Source: Sporomusa silvacetica DSM 10669
GTDB taxonomy: Bacteria > Bacillota > Negativicutes > Sporomusales > Sporomusaceae
Length of the DNA: 32,000 nt
Direction: 5' to 3'
Assembly: GCF_002257705.2 (NCBI RefSeq)
Contig: NZ_CP155573.1
Span: 5,037,814 to 5,069,813, forward strand
Shown here: positions 9,573-22,773 of the stretch, one piece after another
Position numbering within the stretch: position 1 is the stretch's first letter
How the letters are laid out: each line of letters opens with the position of its first letter
Position numbers and translations under genes: made by a program
The notes under the pieces: model-generated
What the model saw: only the letters and a program-made list of their open reading frames with translations
The model's database searches: none
Told to the model about the DNA's origin: nothing

Positions 9573-9781
9573 CTTCCTCCCTAAATTCTATACTATTTTG
9601 AAAAACAGTTACCCTACGGCAAATTTAATCTGACCTGTACCATCCTTATAATAATAATCAATTGGTACCAGTTTCTCCGTGCTATATAAATTTTCCTGCT
9701 AGATTTTGTATAATCACAGGGCGTGAAAATGGTTTGCAAATCGAATCTATTGTTGAACTCAGATTTTTTTCTAAATAGGTA

Positions 9782-9809
9782 TTGTATTTCCTATTCTTTG
9801 TGTTATAAT
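9782..9809 (+). promoter_or_regulatory. Candidate promoter of the rubrerythrin gene (TTGTAT-N16-TATAAT with extended -10 TG)
   Basis: TTGTAT at 9782-9787, TG at 9801-9802 and TATAAT at 9804-9809, about 40 nt upstream of ATG 9849. Confidence 0.4.
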
Positions 9810-9816
9810 TATCCTA

Positions 9817-9831
9817 TAATAATAATTATTG
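9817..9831. promoter_or_regulatory. 7-1-7 inverted repeat TAATAAT-A-ATTATTG, a Fur/PerR-family-like operator
   Basis: Lies between the -10 element and the SD of the rubrerythrin gene. 6 of 7 half-site positions are complementary, and it resembles the PerR box TTATAATnATTATAA. Confidence 0.3.
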
Positions 9832-9848
9832 TTTGTGGAGGTAGATTT

Positions 9849-10397
9849 ATGAAAAAGTTTGTATGTACTATCTGTGGCTATGTTCACGAGGGCGACTTTG
9901 CTCCTGACGCTTGTCCCCAGTGCAACGCACCTGCTACTAAGTTTGTCGAACAGTCCGCTGCTGGTTTGAATTGGGCTGATGAGCATAGAATCGGCGTAGC
10001 CGCTGGCGTAGATACCCAAATCCTCGAAGGTCTGAAACTGAATTTTATGGGAGAGTGCACCGAAGTCGGCATGTATCTGGCAATGAGCCGCCAAGCTGAC
10101 CGCGAGGGTTACCCCGAGGTAGCTGAGGCATATAAGCGCATTGCCTTTGAAGAAGCCGAGCACGCCGCAAAATTTGCCGAATTGCTGGGTGAAGTCGTAA
10201 ACCCTTCTACCCAAAAGAACCTTGAACTCCGGGTAGAAGCTGAATATGGTGCCTGTCAAGGCAAACTGACTATCGCCAAAAAAGCTAAAGAACTTGGCTT
10301 GGATGCCATTCATGATACTGTTCATGAAATGTGCAAAGATGAAGCACGTCATGGCGCCGCCTTTAAGGGGTTACTAGATAGATATTTCGGGAAGTAG
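9849..10397 (+). CDS. rbr: Rubrerythrin with an N-terminal rubredoxin-like domain ('reverse' rubrerythrin)
   Basis: The ORF-track frame starts at GTG 9723, but GGAGG plus 7 nt precedes ATG 9849. [28 protein letters not shown] is a CxxC...CxxC rubredoxin knuckle. It is followed by a ferritin-like di-iron domain ([17 protein letters not shown]). Confidence 0.9.
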
Positions 10398-12625: not shown

Positions 12626-13267
12626 TTATGATTCTATATTTTTGTTGACAGTTTCAGGCCCCATAGCCAAAGCCAATAAAGTAATTACACCTAAAATACA
12701 CATATACACCACAATAGGCCACCAATGTCCACTCCAACTATATAGCGCAGTGCAAATAAACGGAGCCACTCCACCGGCAAGTATGGAGCCTAATTCACGA
12801 GAAAAAGCAAATCCAGATAAGCGAAAATCTGTATCAAATAATTCTGCATACCAGGAAGCCTGTGGCGTAATCATTGCTGGATAGGCTATCCCCAATCCTA
12901 CAATAAATCCCAGAATTATCGCCAAAACAGAGCCTGTGCCAACAATCATGAAAAAAGGAACAAGCCAAAGCATTGACAAGATAGTTCCACCAATATAAAC
13001 AGGCTTACGTCCAATTTTATCAGAAAGCATGCCATAAATGGGCATAGATATTAGTTGTGTCGCAGAAGCAATAATAACTCCCCATAACGCTGTAGACTTG
13101 GGTAGCCCTAGTCCGGTTACGAGATATGCCATAATGAAAACCGGATAGAAGTAGGCAAATCCATTCTCGCCCATGCGTGTGCCAATGACAATAAGAACTT
13201 CACGCGGATGACGCTTAATAGCTGAAAAAATACCAACATGTTTACCACTCTGTTCACGAGCAGCTTT
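12626..13267 (-). pseudogene. MFS transporter (metabolite:H+ symporter, MHS-like), C-terminal part, cut off by the IS3 insertion
   Basis: The frame stays open above the ORF-track ATG (13174) up to the IS junction: K-AAREQSGKHVGIFSAIKRHPREVLIVIGTRMGENGFAYF... GMLSDKIGRKP is the MFS loop 8-9 motif. The frame continues exactly from fragment 14483-14657 once the IS and one TSD copy are removed. Confidence 0.8.
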
Positions 13268-13670: not shown

Positions 13671-14453
13671 ATGTGTAAATGCTTAAATATTGCCCGAAGT
13701 ACCTATTATTACGAGACAATTGGCAAGCCGGATGAAAATGATTTAGAAACAAAAATTGACTGGATTTTTCATGAGAATCACGATGTCTACGGAACAAGAA
13801 AGATCAAAAAAGAGCTGCAAAAATTAGACTATCAAGTTTCTCGTCGCCGTATCGGAAGAATCATGAAAAAGAACGGATTAGTCTCAAAATATACAGTTGC
13901 ACAATTTAAGCCTCATAAGCAGAAATGTAATGAAGAGCCTGTTAAAAATGAACTGAGACGGCAATTTACCGGACAAGCTCCCTATGCAGTAGTTGTCAGT
14001 GATTTAACGTATGTTCGGGTAAATTACAAATGGAACTACGTATGTATTCTTGTAGATTTGTTTAATCGAGAAATTATCGGCTATAGTGCCGGAATTCATA
14101 AAGATGCGCAATTAGTATATGATGCATTTGCAACAGTAAAGACGGATCTGAGAAACATTCAGATGTTTCATTCAGACCGGGGCAGTGAGTTTAAAAACGA
14201 ACTGCTTGATGAGGTGATTTCCACTTTTGAAATCAAACGTTCTCTTAGCATGAAGGGCTACCCTTATGATAATGCAGTGGCAGAGGCAACCTTTAAGATC
14301 TTCAAAACCGAATTTGTGTATGGGCGAAACTTCGATAGCTTATATCATTTACGCCATGAACTAGCCCGGTACATTGACTGGTTTAACAATATTAGAATTC
14401 ATGGTTCTCTCAATTACTTAACGCCAGTTCAAGTTCGACAATTGACCTTATAA
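13671..14453 (+). CDS. IS3-family transposase OrfB (DDE/rve catalytic domain), probably made as an OrfAB fusion by -1 frameshift
   Basis: The -1 frame is open from 13590, overlapping the end of orfA. The DDE triad contexts are VVSDLTY, FHSDRGSEF and YDNAVAEATF. The N-terminal YSISAMCKCLNIARSTYYY is the HTH_21-like motif. Confidence 0.9.
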   Translation: MCKCLNIARSTYYYETIGKPDENDLETKIDWIFHENHDVYGTRKIKKELQKLDYQVSRRRIGRIMKKNGLVSKYTVAQFKPHKQKCNEEPVKNELRRQFTGQAPYAVVVSDLTYVRVNYKWNYVCILVDLFNREIIGYSAGIHKDAQLVYDAFATVKTDLRNIQMFHSDRGSEFKNELLDEVISTFEIKRSLSMKGYPYDNAVAEATFKIFKTEFVYGRNFDSLYHLRHELARYIDWFNNIRIHGSLNYLTPVQVRQLTL

Positions 14454-17128: not shown

Positions 17129-20098
17129 TTATCGTGCTCTTCTCAGAGTGGTTTTGAAAGCAGTAGTTATATTACTATGTGCCTTGGGATTACGAGTACG
17201 CAACTTCTCCAGCCAGTATATCAGTTTGGTATGACTCTCTTGTTTTCCCGCCAGCCAAACCAGCAAACGGCTAAACCCAAACTCATATACATCAACTTTA
17301 ACATATACCGCCAAGAGCTTAAATAACGTGCGATCAGAATGATTGGCAATTACTTTTTCCACAGCTTCTTCGGCCAATATCTCGCGTACATAGCTATGCT
17401 CACTCAGCCTTAACATGGCATAAAACCAGGTAATACACTGTTCTTCGTCAGCTAAATAGCCATTTAGCAGCTGGACCTCTAGTTTTTTTAAAAACAGCCC
17501 CTGTAGATAAGCCGCTTGCACCTCTTTAAACCGCTGTTCACCTTCAAGCGAGTTAAGTACAAACTCCAGTTTTGGGCAAAATGCCTGTTGGTCAAAATTC
17601 CAAACGTGACAAACAATCTGATTATTAATAACATCGTACATCCAAATCTCACCAAAGCGCAGATAGCTATCTTGTTTACGCTGTGCATCGTACATTATTG
17701 TTTTATACTCTTCCAGATCACCAGTATACCATTCTTTAATCATCTCTTGAGCAATGCTTTTGGCGTCTTCATCTTCTATTTGGAAATAGCTCCTGAGCGC
17801 CAGTTCTTCCTGCTGGTTAGAGTAGCGAAAAACCGGCAAACTTTGTTCTGTACGCCTGAGGTTATCAACCAGTTGCTTACAGGTATCAATTAATTCATAC
17901 TGCGCATTTACGGCGATCACAACTGCTCCATTGCGGGGGGTGGCAGCAAACAGGCCGCTAAGAACTACTTTCCGCCCTTTATCAGTCAGTTCGTAGTTCT
18001 TAGCGCCACCAACCTCACATTCACTCAGCAAATGGCAGCGGACAAGTTCGCTAAGGTAATAGCTGACAGCGACCTCTTCCACTCGTAATAAACCAACAAT
18101 ACCTTGTTGACTACACAGCTCAGCCAGGCCGCAGGAAATACACTTCATAATAAACTCTTCGATGAGGTTATAGCGCCTGTATCCGTCAAGCCGAAACTCT
18201 ACTGCTATAACAGCAACAGGCAGTTGCCATTCTCGTGTCTCTAATACTACCATTCCGGCTTGCTCAGCGACTATACGCTGAGCGATATTCTCAATTTCTA
18301 AGGATTTTTTTCCTAAAAGCGTTTCCGCCGGGGTTACTCCACTTACTATGTCAGTCATGCCTACATTACATTCAGGCTGGTACTGAGCTTTCTGTATCCG
18401 GTTTATCCATTCCTCCGCCAGCAAAACCCTTATTTTGTTATCAGGGCTTACGCTCTCTGCCAAATGTGCTGTACTTGTTTTGATTCTTGAAGAAATGATA
18501 TCTTGCTCGCATACTAATTTCTCCAGTTTACCACAAGCTACCGTTATTACATCTTCCAATTCGGTCAGACGCTGGCGGCTTTCCTGCAATCTATTTGTAT
18601 TGTCTGTCCTTTGTTTCTCAATATTGTCAACTTGTCTTGAGAGATCTTCTAACCTATTTTGCTGTTCTCTCTGGCGGGGCACTACCATTATGTCGTTTTC
18701 CTGCAATAAACCCTGCCGCTCAGCAAGCGCAGACTTCTGCTGTTGCAACTTGTATTGAGCCTGCTCCAGCGTGTGCTCAATTTTTCCTAAACTTTGTTGC
18801 AACTCAAGCACATCATTAACGGGATTGGGGTCCATTTTCGCTTTAATGTCTTGTGTTTCCTTACGGGAGCTTAGCAGTTGTTTTGTTAAAGCCGCTAATT
18901 CCTCTTGGCACTGGTTATAGGCATGTTCTATTGAATGTCCGCAATCCAGAAGCTGCCGGTAGCAAGCCTCATAAATCCGTTGCGTTAGATGACGGCATTC
19001 CAGCAAAACCTTATCAATTTCGGCAATTGTTTGTTCACGAAGAACAGCGGGCGAATCTGCCCGTTCTTCCATCGACTTAGCCTTTATAAGCAAATCCAAT
19101 AACGTTTTTTTCCACTGCGTACACAGGCCGAGTTTAGCCAATATTCCCGGTGGCGTAACCCATAATAGGTCATTAATTTCTTGGCGTAAGTGACTGATAG
19201 TTTGATAATTAACCACCACATCCTGTGTGTCTGACTGAAGATCACTTGTCGTCAAACCATAGTCCTTCGCCGTATCATTTAGAACGTAAGATAATTCACG
19301 TAATTGGGTTATTTTTTCAAACGCCGTAGATTTAAGATCATATTGTCGTTGCTTAATGATATTGATTAGCTCCAACAAACGACTAATATCCTGATTCAAA
19401 AAGTGATTTATTGGCGCTTGTTCCTGACACGCCACCTGCTGCACGACAGCTACAAACTCAGTAAGGTCTTGGTTGTACTGTGCGACAGCAATAATTTGCT
19501 CCTCACGCTTACCACTTAATAATACATAAGCATCTTGTTTGTGCTCGATAAGCAGTGACAAGGCTTTAACCAGGTTTGTCTTTTCCGCTTCGATACGCTG
19601 CAACTCAAATTCCCGGGTAATTACAGTTGCTTGAAGCTTTTCATTTTGCTGTTCCAAGTCAGCCAGTTCGGATAAATAGGTTAACTGTACAGTCACGTCT
19701 TCCCTTTTCGCCAGGTTTTGGGCAATGACAGCTTCTGTCTCATATTGAGCCGCAAACAACCGGTCTTCTTCCTCATCAGCAGGCGCCGGCCTTCGCAGAC
19801 TAGTTTTCTGCTCGCTCACTATTTTCTGATACTCTGCTTGCAGAGCTTCATGCCGTGCTTTTAAAGCCTCACTGTCGCGCTGAATTTCATGCTCAAATTG
19901 AGCTAAATCCCGCCATTGTTCATCATAGCCGGTAATCTCATCTGCGCTAACAGTACATTCTGCTTGTATTTCATCCTGCCGTTTCGTGAGACTGGCTAGC
20001 TCCAGCCGCATGCTAGCGGTTTCTTCCTGTTTTTTTTGCAGCTCAAGCAAGTCCTGCTGGCACCAAATAGCTATTTGGCTTAGATTTAAGGGTGCCAT
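17129..20098 (-). CDS. Hypothetical 989-aa protein: long N-terminal coiled coil, central winged-helix-like module and an unassigned C-terminal domain
   Basis: Uninterrupted 2.97-kb ORF. The first ~560 aa are Q/E/L/K-rich and heptad-like. There is no Walker A motif, signal peptide or TM segment. I recognise no family. Confidence 0.7.
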   Translation of the reverse strand: MAPLNLSQIAIWCQQDLLELQKKQEETASMRLELASLTKRQDEIQAECTVSADEITGYDEQWRDLAQFEHEIQRDSEALKARHEALQAEYQKIVSEQKTSLRRPAPADEEEDRLFAAQYETEAVIAQNLAKREDVTVQLTYLSELADLEQQNEKLQATVITREFELQRIEAEKTNLVKALSLLIEHKQDAYVLLSGKREEQIIAVAQYNQDLTEFVAVVQQVACQEQAPINHFLNQDISRLLELINIIKQRQYDLKSTAFEKITQLRELSYVLNDTAKDYGLTTSDLQSDTQDVVVNYQTISHLRQEINDLLWVTPPGILAKLGLCTQWKKTLLDLLIKAKSMEERADSPAVLREQTIAEIDKVLLECRHLTQRIYEACYRQLLDCGHSIEHAYNQCQEELAALTKQLLSSRKETQDIKAKMDPNPVNDVLELQQSLGKIEHTLEQAQYKLQQQKSALAERQGLLQENDIMVVPRQREQQNRLEDLSRQVDNIEKQRTDNTNRLQESRQRLTELEDVITVACGKLEKLVCEQDIISSRIKTSTAHLAESVSPDNKIRVLLAEEWINRIQKAQYQPECNVGMTDIVSGVTPAETLLGKKSLEIENIAQRIVAEQAGMVVLETREWQLPVAVIAVEFRLDGYRRYNLIEEFIMKCISCGLAELCSQQGIVGLLRVEEVAVSYYLSELVRCHLLSECEVGGAKNYELTDKGRKVVLSGLFAATPRNGAVVIAVNAQYELIDTCKQLVDNLRRTEQSLPVFRYSNQQEELALRSYFQIEDEDAKSIAQEMIKEWYTGDLEEYKTIMYDAQRKQDSYLRFGEIWMYDVINNQIVCHVWNFDQQAFCPKLEFVLNSLEGEQRFKEVQAAYLQGLFLKKLEVQLLNGYLADEEQCITWFYAMLRLSEHSYVREILAEEAVEKVIANHSDRTLFKLLAVYVKVDVYEFGFSRLLVWLAGKQESHTKLIYWLEKLRTRNPKAHSNITTAFKTTLRRAR

Positions 20099-20249: not shown

Positions 20250-20310
20250 GCCTGTGCCCTTTAGGGGTATAGTCGTTCAATCCATGGAGAGTTAACCTTT
20301 CCATCTGGAC

Positions 20311-20340
20311 AAAAAAAATTCTAGATTATCTAGAATTTTT
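20311..20340 (-). terminator. Rho-independent terminator after the TGA-containing small gene
   Basis: AATTCTAGA-TTA-TCTAGAATT is a perfect 9-bp stem flanked by A8 and T5. On the minus strand the hairpin is followed by U8. It starts 10 nt after the TAA at 20353-20351. Confidence 0.75.
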
Positions 20341-20350
20341 CGATTCCCTA

Positions 20351-20647
20351 TTAGCCCACAACAGCAACCAACCTTTTATAGAATAGCAGCTTTGCTAATT
20401 TTACAATAACAGTTTGAAAGTTAGCTGGCACGTTGTCAGCATAAAAGATAGTTATATCATCTACCGTCAACTTATAGTAAATTTGAATTTTTTCCGGATC
20501 TATTCCCAGTCGCACGGACGGGAGTTTGGCCTCTTGGCCACCTCCTCAGCAACTGCCAGGACGCCTGGCAACAGTAAGAGTAATAGCCTTATCCTTATTT
20601 TTTTTCATTATATAATCGCGGGCTGCTGGCTCAATAATTATATTCAC
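20351..20647 (-). CDS. Probable small selenoprotein (98 aa, Sec at residue 34 in a G-S-C-U-G-G-G loop), HesB/IscA-like; absent from the ORF track because of the in-frame TGA
   Basis: Hand translation gives (GTG)MNIIIEPAARDYIMKKNKDKAITLTVARRPGSC-TGA-GGGQEAKLPSVRLGIDPEKIQIYYKLTVDDITIFYADNVPANFQTVIVKLAKLLFYKRLVAVVG-TAA. The only stop in 99 codons is TGA 20548-20546. The GTG start overlaps the tatA stop (GTGA), with AAGGTGG 10 nt upstream; the alternative start is ATG 20608. Stem-loops follow the TGA, and a strong terminator follows the TAA. Confidence 0.6.
20505..20545 (-). promoter_or_regulatory. Candidate SECIS region (two stem-loops immediately 3' of the in-frame UGA)
   Basis: Hairpin 1 is GGAG-GU-GGCC AAGA GGCC-AAA-CUCC (20545-20521). 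Hairpin 2 is CCCGUC CGUGC GAC(U)GGG (20522-20505), with a GU-containing loop about 30 nt from the UGA and a bulged U. Folded by eye only. Confidence 0.35.
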
Positions 20648-20850
20648 TTTGTTTGTTCCACCTTCTTTTCTACCGGCTCAGCCTTGATAGTGATCGTTTC
20701 GTCCTTCGCCCCCTCACCGGAAAGGGCCCGCCGAAGCTCCGTCATCCCTTTACCAAGAGCCTTACCTGCTTCTGGTAACTTACCTGGTCCAAATACAAGC
20801 AGAGCAATAACTAGTATTACGCTTAGTTCAGGCATACTTAGATTAAACAT
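20644..20850 (-). CDS. tatA: Twin-arginine translocase subunit TatA/E
   Basis: 68-aa ORF. MFNLSMPELSVILVIALLVFGPGKLPEAGKALGKGM is the canonical TatA TM helix, FGP hinge and amphipathic helix. Confidence 0.85.
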   Translation of the reverse strand: MFNLSMPELSVILVIALLVFGPGKLPEAGKALGKGMTELRRALSGEGAKDETITIKAEPVEKKVEQTK

Positions 20851-21237
20851 AGTTCCACATCCCTTTTATTATTTCTTACCAGTCAGGTCCTATTATGAAC
20901 TGTGTATTCAAACAATGGGATAATCAACCGTAAGCTCTGCAGCTACCTTTCCATTAAGCCGGTCTTCCACATTTTGAATTATACAAAACGCTTCATTGCA
21001 GGGTGCATTTTTTTAAAATAAATTCATAGAGTACTTCCTCTCTCACTATCCTAAGCATGCGCGGCAATAACAAAATTTATAAGATTTGAAATGCAAATTA
21101 ATTAACGCCTACACCTCTCTGCAAATATTAACTATTACTATTATATTATTCCTATCAAAACATGAAATTCCTGCTATGATGTGCGAGATTCGGCAAAAAA
21201 TTTCACCCGTGACTTGTTCACACATAAACAATCCTTT

Positions 21238-21999
21238 TTAGGATTGTCCTACCGGACAAAGCTTTAAGCAGTTAAAACACATATACTGATTTCCTAAATA
21301 AGCTGCTTGTCTCAACCGGGCATATTGCTCACTCATAAGCAGCTTTTTTTGTTCTTCCGGCGAACTACCTAACCGCTGCAGCTGAAAACCAATATCAGCG
21401 CCCAAACCATAGGGCTGTGAATGACCTAAGCATTTCATTACATCGGTTTTCCCTTCGTCATCCAACGCTCTTGCCGGGCAATTTTCCACACAAAGATTAC
21501 AATGAATACAAAAATCTTGTTCACATTTTGGCGATGGTTGCAAGGGAAGATTCGTAATAATACTCGTATAGTGAACCCGTGTCCCAAACCGGGGATGAAT
21601 AACAAGATTATGGCGACCAAACGTTCCTAAGCCAGCGGCAACGGCTGCATGACGCTGGGAAAAATCTGCTATCGCCGGCCTGTCACTATGAATTTCGAAG
21701 GGGTAGGATATGGGTATCGTAGCAACCTGCGCACCGTATTTACGCTCCAAAAAACGGGCAATCTGGTAACTCGAGAACCTTGAAAATGAACCCAAATCTA
21801 AATAGCCATTCAAGGCAGCACTCATACTTGGGCTTTCGCAGCTTGACAAAACTTTAAATGCCAACACAATAAGGGATTTTGCAGCAGGCAGAAATTTTGT
21901 GATTTCGTAGGACTTGGGGCTGTGATAATCCTCGACACAGGCGAAACCAACGTCATCTACTCCTAACTCCAGAATATAATTTTTGATTTGTTTCTCCAT
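21238..21999 (-). CDS. 4Fe-4S cluster protein of the epoxyqueuosine reductase (QueG) / reductive-dehalogenase-like class, short form
   Basis: 253-aa ORF with CIHCNLCVENCP plus a second cluster CFNCLKLCP. The N-terminal VGFA...AKSLIVLAF resembles the QueG DUF1730 region. It is shorter than canonical QueG, so the function is uncertain. Confidence 0.5.
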   Translation of the reverse strand: MEKQIKNYILELGVDDVGFACVEDYHSPKSYEITKFLPAAKSLIVLAFKVLSSCESPSMSAALNGYLDLGSFSRFSSYQIARFLERKYGAQVATIPISYPFEIHSDRPAIADFSQRHAAVAAGLGTFGRHNLVIHPRFGTRVHYTSIITNLPLQPSPKCEQDFCIHCNLCVENCPARALDDEGKTDVMKCLGHSQPYGLGADIGFQLQRLGSSPEEQKKLLMSEQYARLRQAAYLGNQYMCFNCLKLCPVGQS

Positions 22000-22052: not shown

Positions 22053-22496
22053 TTATGGTACTAGCGCTTCTAGTTTTGAAATCAAATAGTTAAACTGTTC
22101 TACCTCTGTATCTCCCAAATATTCCTGCAGTGATGCCTGCGCTTCGTCCCATAATGTCGTCGCGGTACTTAATGCAGATTTTCCAGCCTCGGTAAGCATT
22201 ACTTGCCTCGAACGAGGGTCCTCGCCAATATTGATTTTTATGAAACCCATTTCACTGAGCGGCTTCATATTGCGGTTCAGAGTAGTTCTGTCAATGCGCA
22301 TAAATTTAGCCAGTTCACTGATTGTAACCGGCTCTACCTGCTCAAGATGCCTCAATAGCGAATACTGTGTAATTTTAATTCCGCTTGGTGCCAAAACCTT
22401 TTCATATAATTCGGTCACCGCCCGTGAAGCCCGCCGTATATTAAGACATAGGCACGGGCTGGGAATCTTAGGATAGCATCCAGCAATATGTTTCAT
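22053..22496 (-). CDS. MarR-family transcriptional regulator
   Basis: The ORF-track frame extends to 22649, but AAGGTG plus 8 nt precedes ATG 22496 (MKHIAG...). The winged-helix core is ITQYSLLRHLEQVEPVTISELAKFMRIDRTTLNRNMKPLSEMGFI. It lies 53 nt upstream of the QueG-like gene. Confidence 0.85.
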   Translation of the reverse strand: MKHIAGCYPKIPSPCLCLNIRRASRAVTELYEKVLAPSGIKITQYSLLRHLEQVEPVTISELAKFMRIDRTTLNRNMKPLSEMGFIKINIGEDPRSRQVMLTEAGKSALSTATTLWDEAQASLQEYLGDTEVEQFNYLISKLEALVP

Positions 22497-22773
22497 TGCA
22501 CTAACACCTTTCAAATGTCGCGAGTTAAGTGTATACACACATATATTATTACTTATTATAGTATAACCTAATACCTGTTGTGTCAATACTTCCATCCAGC
22601 GCTTTGGGGACCAGTCGATAATATATTGTACAATAAATTTATGATGCACAGCAAAAAATTCCGGAGGTACTTTGGCATCAATTGTAAAATATTACTATAT
22701 CTCCTATTCACGCGAATTTTTTACTATTTCAATTACCCAATTATTCAAATATACACAAAATGGAGGATACTTT

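Follow-up and report, generated by a model that had tools for sequence, protein, structure and literature searches.

A probable unannotated selenoprotein gene of the CC/Se motif family overlapping the end of tatA in Sporomusa silvacetica

Does a single TGA codon downstream of tatA in Sporomusa silvacetica end a reading frame, or does it encode selenocysteine (Sec) within a gene that annotation has missed? The question is raised by a stretch of 32,000 nucleotides (nt) from strain DSM 10669 (contig NZ_CP155573.1, positions 5,037,814 to 5,069,813), which is referred to here as the window and in which all positions are counted from the first nucleotide. An original prediction, made from the letters of the window and a list of its open reading frames (ORFs), proposed that the minus strand between tatA and a terminator encodes a small HesB/IscA-like selenoprotein, translationally coupled to tatA and interrupted only by that TGA. 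The analysis described here suggests that the locus is very probably a functional, unannotated selenoprotein gene in Sporomusa, which belongs to the CC/Se motif family (NF041239, PF28096) in its Cys-Sec form. It is a fresh, unannotated member of a selenoprotein family that has already been catalogued; the find is a correction of annotation and not a new kind of system.

The reading frame and its UGA codon

Translation of positions 20647 to 20351 on the minus strand yielded, as had been predicted, a single frame of 98 sense codons and a TAA stop (20353 to 20351), with TGA 20548 to 20546 as the lone interruption. The product reads VNIIIEPAARDYIMKKNKDKAITLTVARRPGSC up to the TGA, which directly follows Cys33, and GGGQEAKLPSVRLGIDPEKIQIYYKLTVDDITIFYADNVPANFQTVIVKLAKLLFYKRLVAVVG from there to the stop. 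For the same region the mechanical ORF list offers a 33-amino-acid (aa) stub (20546 to 20647), a 54-aa piece (20351 to 20515), and an antisense ORF of 169 aa on the plus strand (20414 to 20923). The antisense ORF was rejected as a gene because it lies opposite two supported genes and NCBIfam offers nothing that matches it at an E value of ≤0.01.

Public annotation truncates the selenoprotein gene to its last 54 residues, which is what the original prediction expected of gene callers unaware of Sec. At least two Sporomusa genome records, those of S. silvacetica (P0003) and Sporomusa sp. KB1 (P0088), hold just 54-aa C-terminal fragments that are described as hypothetical proteins. The P0003 fragment is identical to the window protein except at its start residue. 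The homologues are collinear with the window protein from the first codon on and open with M-N-I-I-I-E-P at exactly GTG 20647; the GTGA of the window is ATGA in one close relative (L010). Two possible starts had been proposed. GTG 20647 is the start codon, and ATG 20608 is ruled out because the homologues align from the GTG.

When the TGA was read as Cys, the protein scored 53.1 bits with the NCBIfam model NF041239, "CC/Se motif family (seleno)protein," whose curated cutoff is 40. The match spans residues 1 to 94 and profile positions 1 to 87 of 91, and thus covers both sides of residue 34, with the Cys or Sec of homologues aligned to the TGA. The two halves alone scored 20.7 and 20.2 bits, so that the cutoff is passed only when they are joined. 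A Cys-Cys/Cys-Sec-motif (seleno)protein family, which had been named as the alternative to HesB/IscA, was therefore the correct assignment. Among the relatives, a protein with Val before Sec (L007) scored 52.4 bits and P0001 scored 55.7 bits. P0001, from Anaerospora hongkongensis, is the closest full-length homologue (67 to 70% identity) and has Cys-Cys at the motif. A Pfam scan of the window protein returned PF01521 alone, below threshold; PF28096 (CC_Se_fam) was possibly missing from the Pfam copy that was scanned, and it is precomputed on the homologues at 66 to 70% identity (P0001 and P0002) and on the 54-aa fragment P0003.

An NCBIfam scan at an E value of ≤10 returned NF041239 and a spurious 16-residue methanobactin hit. 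TIGR01911, the HesB-like selenoprotein family, was unmatched in that scan, although its presence in the release was not checked. Because no model besides NF041239 and the spurious hit matched at this threshold, the CC/Se family is, as judged by profile comparison, separate from the HesB-like selenoprotein family.

An exhaustive profile search found no more than 68 representatives at 50% identity. Among them were many N-terminal stubs of 31 to 35 aa that end in PGSC or PGSV, as well as C-terminal pieces of 51 to 68 aa. This pattern is how split Sec genes show up. The NF041239 family is listed among prokaryotic selenoproteins in a 2026 review, with its first prediction in Moorella thermoacetica (PMC13188914), and small selenoproteins of this type are still systematically missed by annotation.

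The TGA is found at the identical alignment column in 13 distinct genes, including that of the window, and the residue before it is Cys, Val, or Ser (Table 1). In these genes the frame stays open before and after the TGA wherever the contig goes on, with no other stop or frameshift. The genome-locus search, which used narrow alignments, gave 4 genome loci and 2 metagenome loci; the other Sec forms were reached via truncated fragments among the representatives. A decaying pseudogene would have stops at scattered positions; the homologues have the stop at one column. Cys is present at that column in P0001 (codon TGT) and P0004, and the Cys-Cys motif is found in P0001, P0005, P0012, P0015, P0016, and P0072. 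The S-I-C-K-G-G of P0004, with its I-C-K, is the counterpart of the V-U-K-G-G group (L007, L008, and L014). The column alternates solely between TGA and Cys codons. The ratio of nonsynonymous to synonymous substitution rates (dN/dS) is 0.06 to 0.35 upstream of the TGA and 0.25 to 0.41 downstream, at dS values of about 0.4 to 2. Values below 1 on both sides argue that both halves are translated in the same frame. Thus, the proposal of one gene with its TGA at a Sec/Cys column held up in the comparison.

Reassignment of TGA to an amino acid (genetic code 4 or 25) was considered and ruled out. The adjacent tatA ends in TGA, and therefore TGA is a normal stop here and the codon is not reassigned genome-wide.

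The possibility that the region is a decaying pseudogene or two unrelated small ORFs, with the TGA as a genuine stop that leaves the 33-aa stub, the 54-aa piece, or nothing, matches the way gene callers and public annotation (P0003 and P0088) treat the region and the normal use of TGA as a stop by tatA, but it is barely credible in view of the one stop column in 13 diverged genes that are otherwise free of stops and frameshifts, the Cys found there in the CC forms, the dN/dS values, the family cutoff that only the joined halves pass, and the constrained hairpin described below.

RNA structure downstream of the UGA

Two stem-loops had been proposed immediately 3' of the TGA, the second of them resembling a selenocysteine insertion sequence (SECIS). 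Both fold (Table 1). Hairpin 2, CCCGUCCGUGCGACUGGG, is an 18-nt element that is unique in the window; its stem of 6 bp carries a bulged U and is capped by a CGUGC loop, and the folding energy is -8.1 kcal/mol including one flanking pair. The criteria quoted for a bacterial SECIS (bSECIS) are a small apical loop with G-U, a G in the first two loop bases, a bulged U, a spacing of 16 to 37 nt from the UGA, and a minimum free energy (MFE) of ≤-7.5 kcal/mol (PMC13188914). Hairpin 2 agrees with every one of them and is the best SECIS candidate, as the prediction had it. The position of hairpin 1 holds a hairpin in all homologues, yet in two registers and with variable loops, and in the window hairpin 1 falls outside the bSECIS criteria for spacing and loop G. 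It may act as a spacer or form a lower helix; the CUCC/CCC bases are contested between its outer stem and hairpin 2. Rfam searches of the whole window (gathering threshold) and of positions 20300 to 20700 (E value of ≤10) returned chance matches to long noncoding RNAs and small RNAs (sRNAs) and no bacterial SECIS. The 81-nt fold around the TGA has a z score of -2.0; the decisive evidence is comparative and not this score.

The comparison was made on nine full-length Sec forms. Outside the SECIS block, 14 of the 14 amino-acid-invariant columns with degenerate codons vary synonymously; inside it, Ser, Val, and Arg have one codon each. The Pro and Leu codons change in a single gene, that of L017, and do so together (CCG to CCA and CUG to UUG), which replaces a G-C pair with an A-U pair. 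The double change folds more stably than either single change. The third base of the Gly codon, just outside the stem of hairpin 2, varies freely, whereas the base that precedes the stem stays C though the residue is Leu (CUC) or Tyr (UAC). The pairs of hairpin 2 are formed in 66 of 66 cells. In a CC form with the identical P-S-V-R-L-G peptide (L019), the codons are CCG TCT GTA AGG CTG GGC and the hairpin is abolished; in another CC form (L020) it is weakened. At the level of sequence comparison, these results show RNA-level constraint on the 18-nt block, and from them we infer that hairpin 2 is a SelB-binding element.

Several observations count against this interpretation. The 32-kb window contains no sel genes and no tRNA-Sec. 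The Anaerospora CC form (TGT; L003/L009 6001 to 6297, A. hongkongensis) keeps the 18-nt hairpin base for base; therefore, nucleotide conservation alone is no proof of SECIS function there. We read that gene as recently converted from Sec to Cys, with a "fossil" SECIS left in place. In a rival long helix, which cannot form together with hairpin 2, the Gly codons GGNGGNGG pair with CCCGUCC; 83% of its cells are paired, and the G-to-A change in L017 improves it, too. This long helix is the structure that RNAalifold gave for 6 sequences, without covariation, and pair counts did not separate it from hairpin 2. The covariation of hairpin 2 comes from a single sequence, and its value was reached in 45 of 500 shuffles. 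When the thermodynamic ensemble is computed for the window sequence, the pairs of hairpin 2 have probabilities of only 0.1 to 0.2, because hairpin 1 competes for the same bases.

It is conceivable that the UGA is read through without Sec, by near-cognate Trp or Cys decoding or by low-level leaky termination that the downstream hairpin stimulates, with a Cys- or Trp-type protein under regulated expression as the outcome. A stop that is followed directly by a stable hairpin can be prone to read-through, the evidence for Sec machinery comes from the genus and not from this genome, and public sequences have "W" at the column (P0002 and P0053). However, these Trp residues stem from TGA, not TGG; the column has only TGA or Cys codons, the classic Sec/Cys pair; hairpin 2 conforms to the bSECIS criteria; curators class the family among the selenoproteins (NF041239; PMC13188914); and the genus decodes Sec. 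S. sphaeroides has selAB and Sec-containing fdhF and grd genes (PMC12456013), and Sec genes have been annotated by hand in S. sphaeroides and S. ovata (PMC11385720). The literature on Sec machinery in S. silvacetica specifically gave nothing beyond a reference-list citation. We regard read-through without Sec as very improbable.

The Trp residues are themselves an annotation matter. P0002 (L001; 66% identity to the window protein) and P0053 (L018) have Trp at the Sec column in public metagenome protein sets, and the DNA of both is TGA. The Trp is false, because the contigs were translated with TGA as Trp. The "W" forms P0045, P0049, P0054, P0055, P0069, and P0071 are possibly the same artifact. 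Correction is needed for these false Trp calls as well as for the truncated Sporomusa records.

Under the selenoprotein interpretation, the gene would be transcribed with tatA, and translation would start at GTG 20647, which overlaps the tatA stop. UGA 20548 to 20546 would then be read as Sec by SelB carrying Sec-tRNA(Sec), as in established bacterial Sec decoding, with SelB recruited by an in-frame SECIS for which the 18-nt hairpin at 20522 to 20505 is the best candidate. The near-invariant hairpin, with natural Cys-form controls and one compensatory variant, offers a clean model of SelB-SECIS interaction in Negativicutes.

Table 1. Features of the window and of related loci, with positions in the window or the loci concerned
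Feature	Position or locus	Strand	Basis or remark
Full-length selenoprotein gene, GTG start, 98 codons + TAA	20351..20647	-	Translation, NF041239 match, collinear homologues, dN/dS
In-frame UGA, residue 34, in loop G-S-C-U-G-G-G after Cys33	20546..20548	-	Column shared in 13 genes, Cys in others
Hairpin 1, GGAG-G-UGGCC-AAGA-GGCCA-AA-CUCC, directly after UGA	20521..20545	-	Fold, -14.1 kcal/mol
Hairpin 2, best SECIS candidate, CCCGUC-CGUGC-GAC(U)GGG, codons (L)PSVRLG, 29 nt after UGA	20505..20522	-	Fold, conservation
Intrinsic-terminator-like hairpin, 13-bp A/U-rich stem, UAA loop, U tail, 10 nt past TAA	20311..20341	-	Folding
tatA, TGA stop overlapping GTG start as GTGA	20644..20850	-	PF02416, 63.8 bits; TIGR01411, 56.2 bits (cutoff 53.9)
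Shine-Dalgarno-like AAGGTGG, 10 nt upstream of GTG, inside tatA end	20658..20664	-	Read from sequence
C-U Sec forms	Window, L006 (Sporomusa sp. KB1), L010, L011, L001, L012, L013, L015/16, L018		Residue before Sec is Cys
V-U Sec forms	L007 (S. malonica), L008 (Sporomusa metagenome-assembled genome), L014		Residue before Sec is Val
S-U Sec form	L017		Residue before Sec is Ser
HMA P-type ATPases as neighbors	L001, L003, L015		
FeoAB as neighbors	L003, L013, L016		
ArsR regulators as neighbors	L003, L015, L023		
GDT1 as neighbor	L003, L017		
FTR1 as neighbor	L020		
RND pump with CzcB-like adaptor, 3 nt upstream	L022		
ArsP permeases and thioredoxin as neighbors	L023		
Thioredoxin and radical SAM/SPASM as neighbors	L017		

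Fold, gene neighbors, and possible function

A confident AlphaFold2 model of P0001, for which 23 family sequences were aligned, had a predicted local distance difference test score (pLDDT) of 90.2 and a predicted template modeling score (pTM) of 0.80; the motif loop (residues 31 to 40) had a pLDDT of 62. The top 11 Foldseek matches in the PDB were all of the HesB/IscA/SufA type (1x0g, 2d2a, 1r94, 9a4q_B, 2apn, 1s98, 2p2e, 2k4z, and 1nwb, with 1x0g and 2d2a counted on two chains each), at template modeling (TM) scores of about 0.46 to 0.61 and E values of 1.7e-4 to 4.9e-2. For 9a4q_B (ODPA-YneR) and 2k4z (DsrR), the placement in the HesB/IscA fold is our own assignment and was not read from the hit titles. 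One reservation is that the model is of a homologue that is 67% identical and not of the window protein.

The description of the protein as HesB/IscA-like is therefore sustained at the level of fold, but it did not hold by sequence. PF01521 scored 12.6 bits against a threshold of 26.3 (E = 0.16) and covered the N-terminal 45 residues only, hhalign of the family profile with Escherichia coli IscA gave a probability of 0.3%, and the family profile found nothing among PDB sequences at an E value of ≤10. The C-terminal Cys pair of A-type carriers is likewise absent: the C terminus, KLLFYKRLVAVVG, has no Cys, and the only Cys or Sec residues are those at positions 33 and 34. The protein is thus predicted to have an IscA-like scaffold, yet it is no A-type carrier. 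Inspection found no signal or twin-arginine motif. The product would be a cytoplasmic, single-domain protein of 98 residues with a HesB/IscA-type fold, as modeled on the Cys homologue.

Neither the NCBIfam name nor the table in PMC13188914 assigns the CC/Se family a function. The Cys33-Sec34 pair would lie between strands 2 and 3, in a loop that is rich in Gly and flexible. We tentatively favor, with slightly less than even confidence, the view that this loop is a site at which soft metal(loid)s are bound or transferred, in concert with systems for the uptake and efflux of metals. This view is favored because of the gene neighbors (Table 1), a subclade with His at the motif, the fold, the flexible Gly-rich loop, and the dispensability of Cys33 in the V-U and S-U forms. 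The diversity of gene contexts is harder to reconcile with such a role: the neighbors are tatA in the window, VTT/DedA and methyltransferase genes at the V-U loci, a chemoreceptor gene at L011, and a two-component system at L012.

The His subclade has H-N-H or H-D-H in place of C-C and is still named CC/Se family by NCBI. In its members (P0085, at L022 5001 to 5306, and P0077, P0080 to P0084, P0087, and P0011), I-H-N-H-G or T-H-D-H-G replaces the motif. The subclade scores 41.9 bits with NF041239, and the gene at L022 starts 3 nt past an RND efflux pump gene. At L017 (1814 to 4756), the S-U-V-G-G-C member is flanked by a thioredoxin gene on one side and two radical SAM/SPASM genes on the other, unlike the metal-transport contexts.

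As the main alternative, the same gene with the same Sec decoding could encode a redox protein, in which the Cys-Sec pair cycles through a selenenylsulfide and acts as a thiol/selenol oxidoreductase or as a persulfide/perselenide carrier. Adjacent Cys-Sec and U-x-x-x-C are typical of redox selenoproteins, thioredoxin genes are neighbors at L017 and L023, and a CoA-disulfide-reductase/rhodanese-like gene and a polysulfide-reductase-like operon are found just downstream at L022. However, the H-N-H/H-D-H motif of the subclade is not redox-active, and the V-U protein of L007 and the S-U protein of L017 show that the preceding Cys is dispensable, with L007 also lacking a downstream Cys. In addition, the fold is that of metal or cluster carriers and is not thioredoxin-like, and the most informative neighbors are metal transporters and ArsR regulators. 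On this evidence a redox center appears unlikely.

A more elaborate version of the metal(loid) site can be proposed, which we consider possible but doubtful. Members of the CC/Se family would use Sec to chaperone or buffer metal(loid)s, on an IscA-like scaffold that has lost its C-terminal ligands, and would partner uptake and efflux systems such as P-type ATPases, RND/Czc pumps, ArsP, and FeoB. Sec itself would be the essential ligand, because the V-U and S-U forms have no neighboring Cys and the sister clade has His-x-His. The rigid 18-nt SECIS, a "fossil" after the Sec-to-Cys conversion in Anaerospora, would possibly serve as a two-helix switch. The IscA-type fold, the flexible Cys-Sec loop, the His-variant sister clade, and the metal-transport neighbors make a metal-binding role directly testable.

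Local context and relation to known systems

The tatA stop (20646 to 20644) and the GTG start (20647 to 20645) overlap by 4 nt. The same junction is found in the two nearest relatives of the window, as GTGA in L006 and as ATGA in L010; the AAGGTGG is retained in L010 and is AAGGCGG in L006. All other homologues have their own GGAGG-type Shine-Dalgarno sequences and unrelated upstream genes. The overlap is therefore local to the window and its two nearest relatives and is no property of the family. In the window lineage, translational coupling to tatA is plausible because of the 4-nt overlap. Thus, of the coupling that the original prediction proposed, the overlap stands, and a general feature of the family does not.

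A terminator downstream of the gene had also been proposed, and folding recovered it, with the stem at 20341 to 20313, a U tail that extends to 20311, and -16 kcal/mol for the 58-nt stretch 20352 to 20295. A consensus terminator scan missed this hairpin because its stem has fewer than three G-C pairs, and in Rfam it resembles a terminator-like sRNA weakly only.

Other genes of the window were noted in passing. Directly downstream of the selenoprotein gene, positions 17129 to 20098 (minus strand) encode a 989-aa protein with no Pfam domain and a weak SMC-like coiled-coil match; the protein is 86 to 89% conserved and has the same position in L006 and L010. Just upstream of tatA is the gene for a 253-aa 4Fe-4S protein (21238 to 21999, minus strand) like the Fe-S domains of QueG and reductive dehalogenases, far under both cutoffs (57 versus 200 bits and 51.7 versus 160), and upstream of this lies a MarR regulator gene (22053 to 22649). 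An rve-type insertion sequence (IS) transposase gene (13671 to 14453, plus strand; HTH_21, rve, and rve_2) adjoins a 182-aa MFS fragment (12626 to 13174, minus strand), which looks truncated, probably by the IS insertion. Two ORFs on opposite strands overlap almost completely (9723 to 10397, plus strand, 224 aa; 9771 to 10352, minus strand, 193 aa). In the loci L007, L008, L012, and L014, which comprise the V-U type and related genes, the motif TTGTTATACTG is common to the region about 35 to 45 nt upstream of the start and could serve as an extended -10 promoter or as an operator.

What is new here, to a modest degree, is the missed gene itself, the C-U, V-U, and S-U variants, the near-invariant candidate SECIS, the predicted fold-level link to IscA, and the metal-related gene neighborhoods. 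The window protein resembles the CC/Se family (NF041239 "Moor_selen_rel," PF28096) in its full-length profile match above the cutoff, its size within the range of about 91 to 107 aa, and its Sec/Cys column in a Gly-rich loop after strand 2, in a family that holds both Sec and Cys-Cys members. It differs from the description of the family in its motif, which the review gives as CxxU (PMC13188914); the 13 Sec forms sampled are C-U (9), V-U (3), and S-U (1), and 6 of the 13 also have U-x-x-x-C. The window copy further differs in that it overlaps the end of tatA via GTGA and that its public records have no selenoprotein annotation.

IscA, SufA, and HesB (PF01521; 1x0g, 2d2a, 1r94, and 1s98) share the predicted fold with the CC/Se protein (Foldseek probability of 1.0, TM of about 0.5 to 0.6). 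In known IscA structures the first ligand Cys is in the loop between strands 2 and 3, and by the order of secondary structure the CU/CC motif would be in the same place. In contrast to these carriers, the CC/Se protein has no significant sequence similarity to them and no C-terminal C-G-C pair to complete a cluster site, and it would therefore not bind a cluster in the IscA manner. The HesB-like selenoprotein family (TIGR01911) is comparable in that it, too, consists of small HesB-fold proteins of anaerobes with Sec in place of a ligand Cys.

Like other bacterial SECIS elements, such as that of E. coli fdhF and the bSECISearch consensus in PMC13188914, hairpin 2 is an in-frame hairpin shortly 3' of the UGA, with a small G-U loop, an early loop G, a bulged U, and a spacing and an MFE within the criteria. 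It differs from them in having its bulged U in the 3' strand of the stem, in being separated from the UGA by another hairpin, which is variable, and in its spacing of 29 or 35 nt, which depends on a two-codon insertion. A further difference is that the 18-nt core is unusually invariant across genes whose proteins are about 40 to 60% identical.

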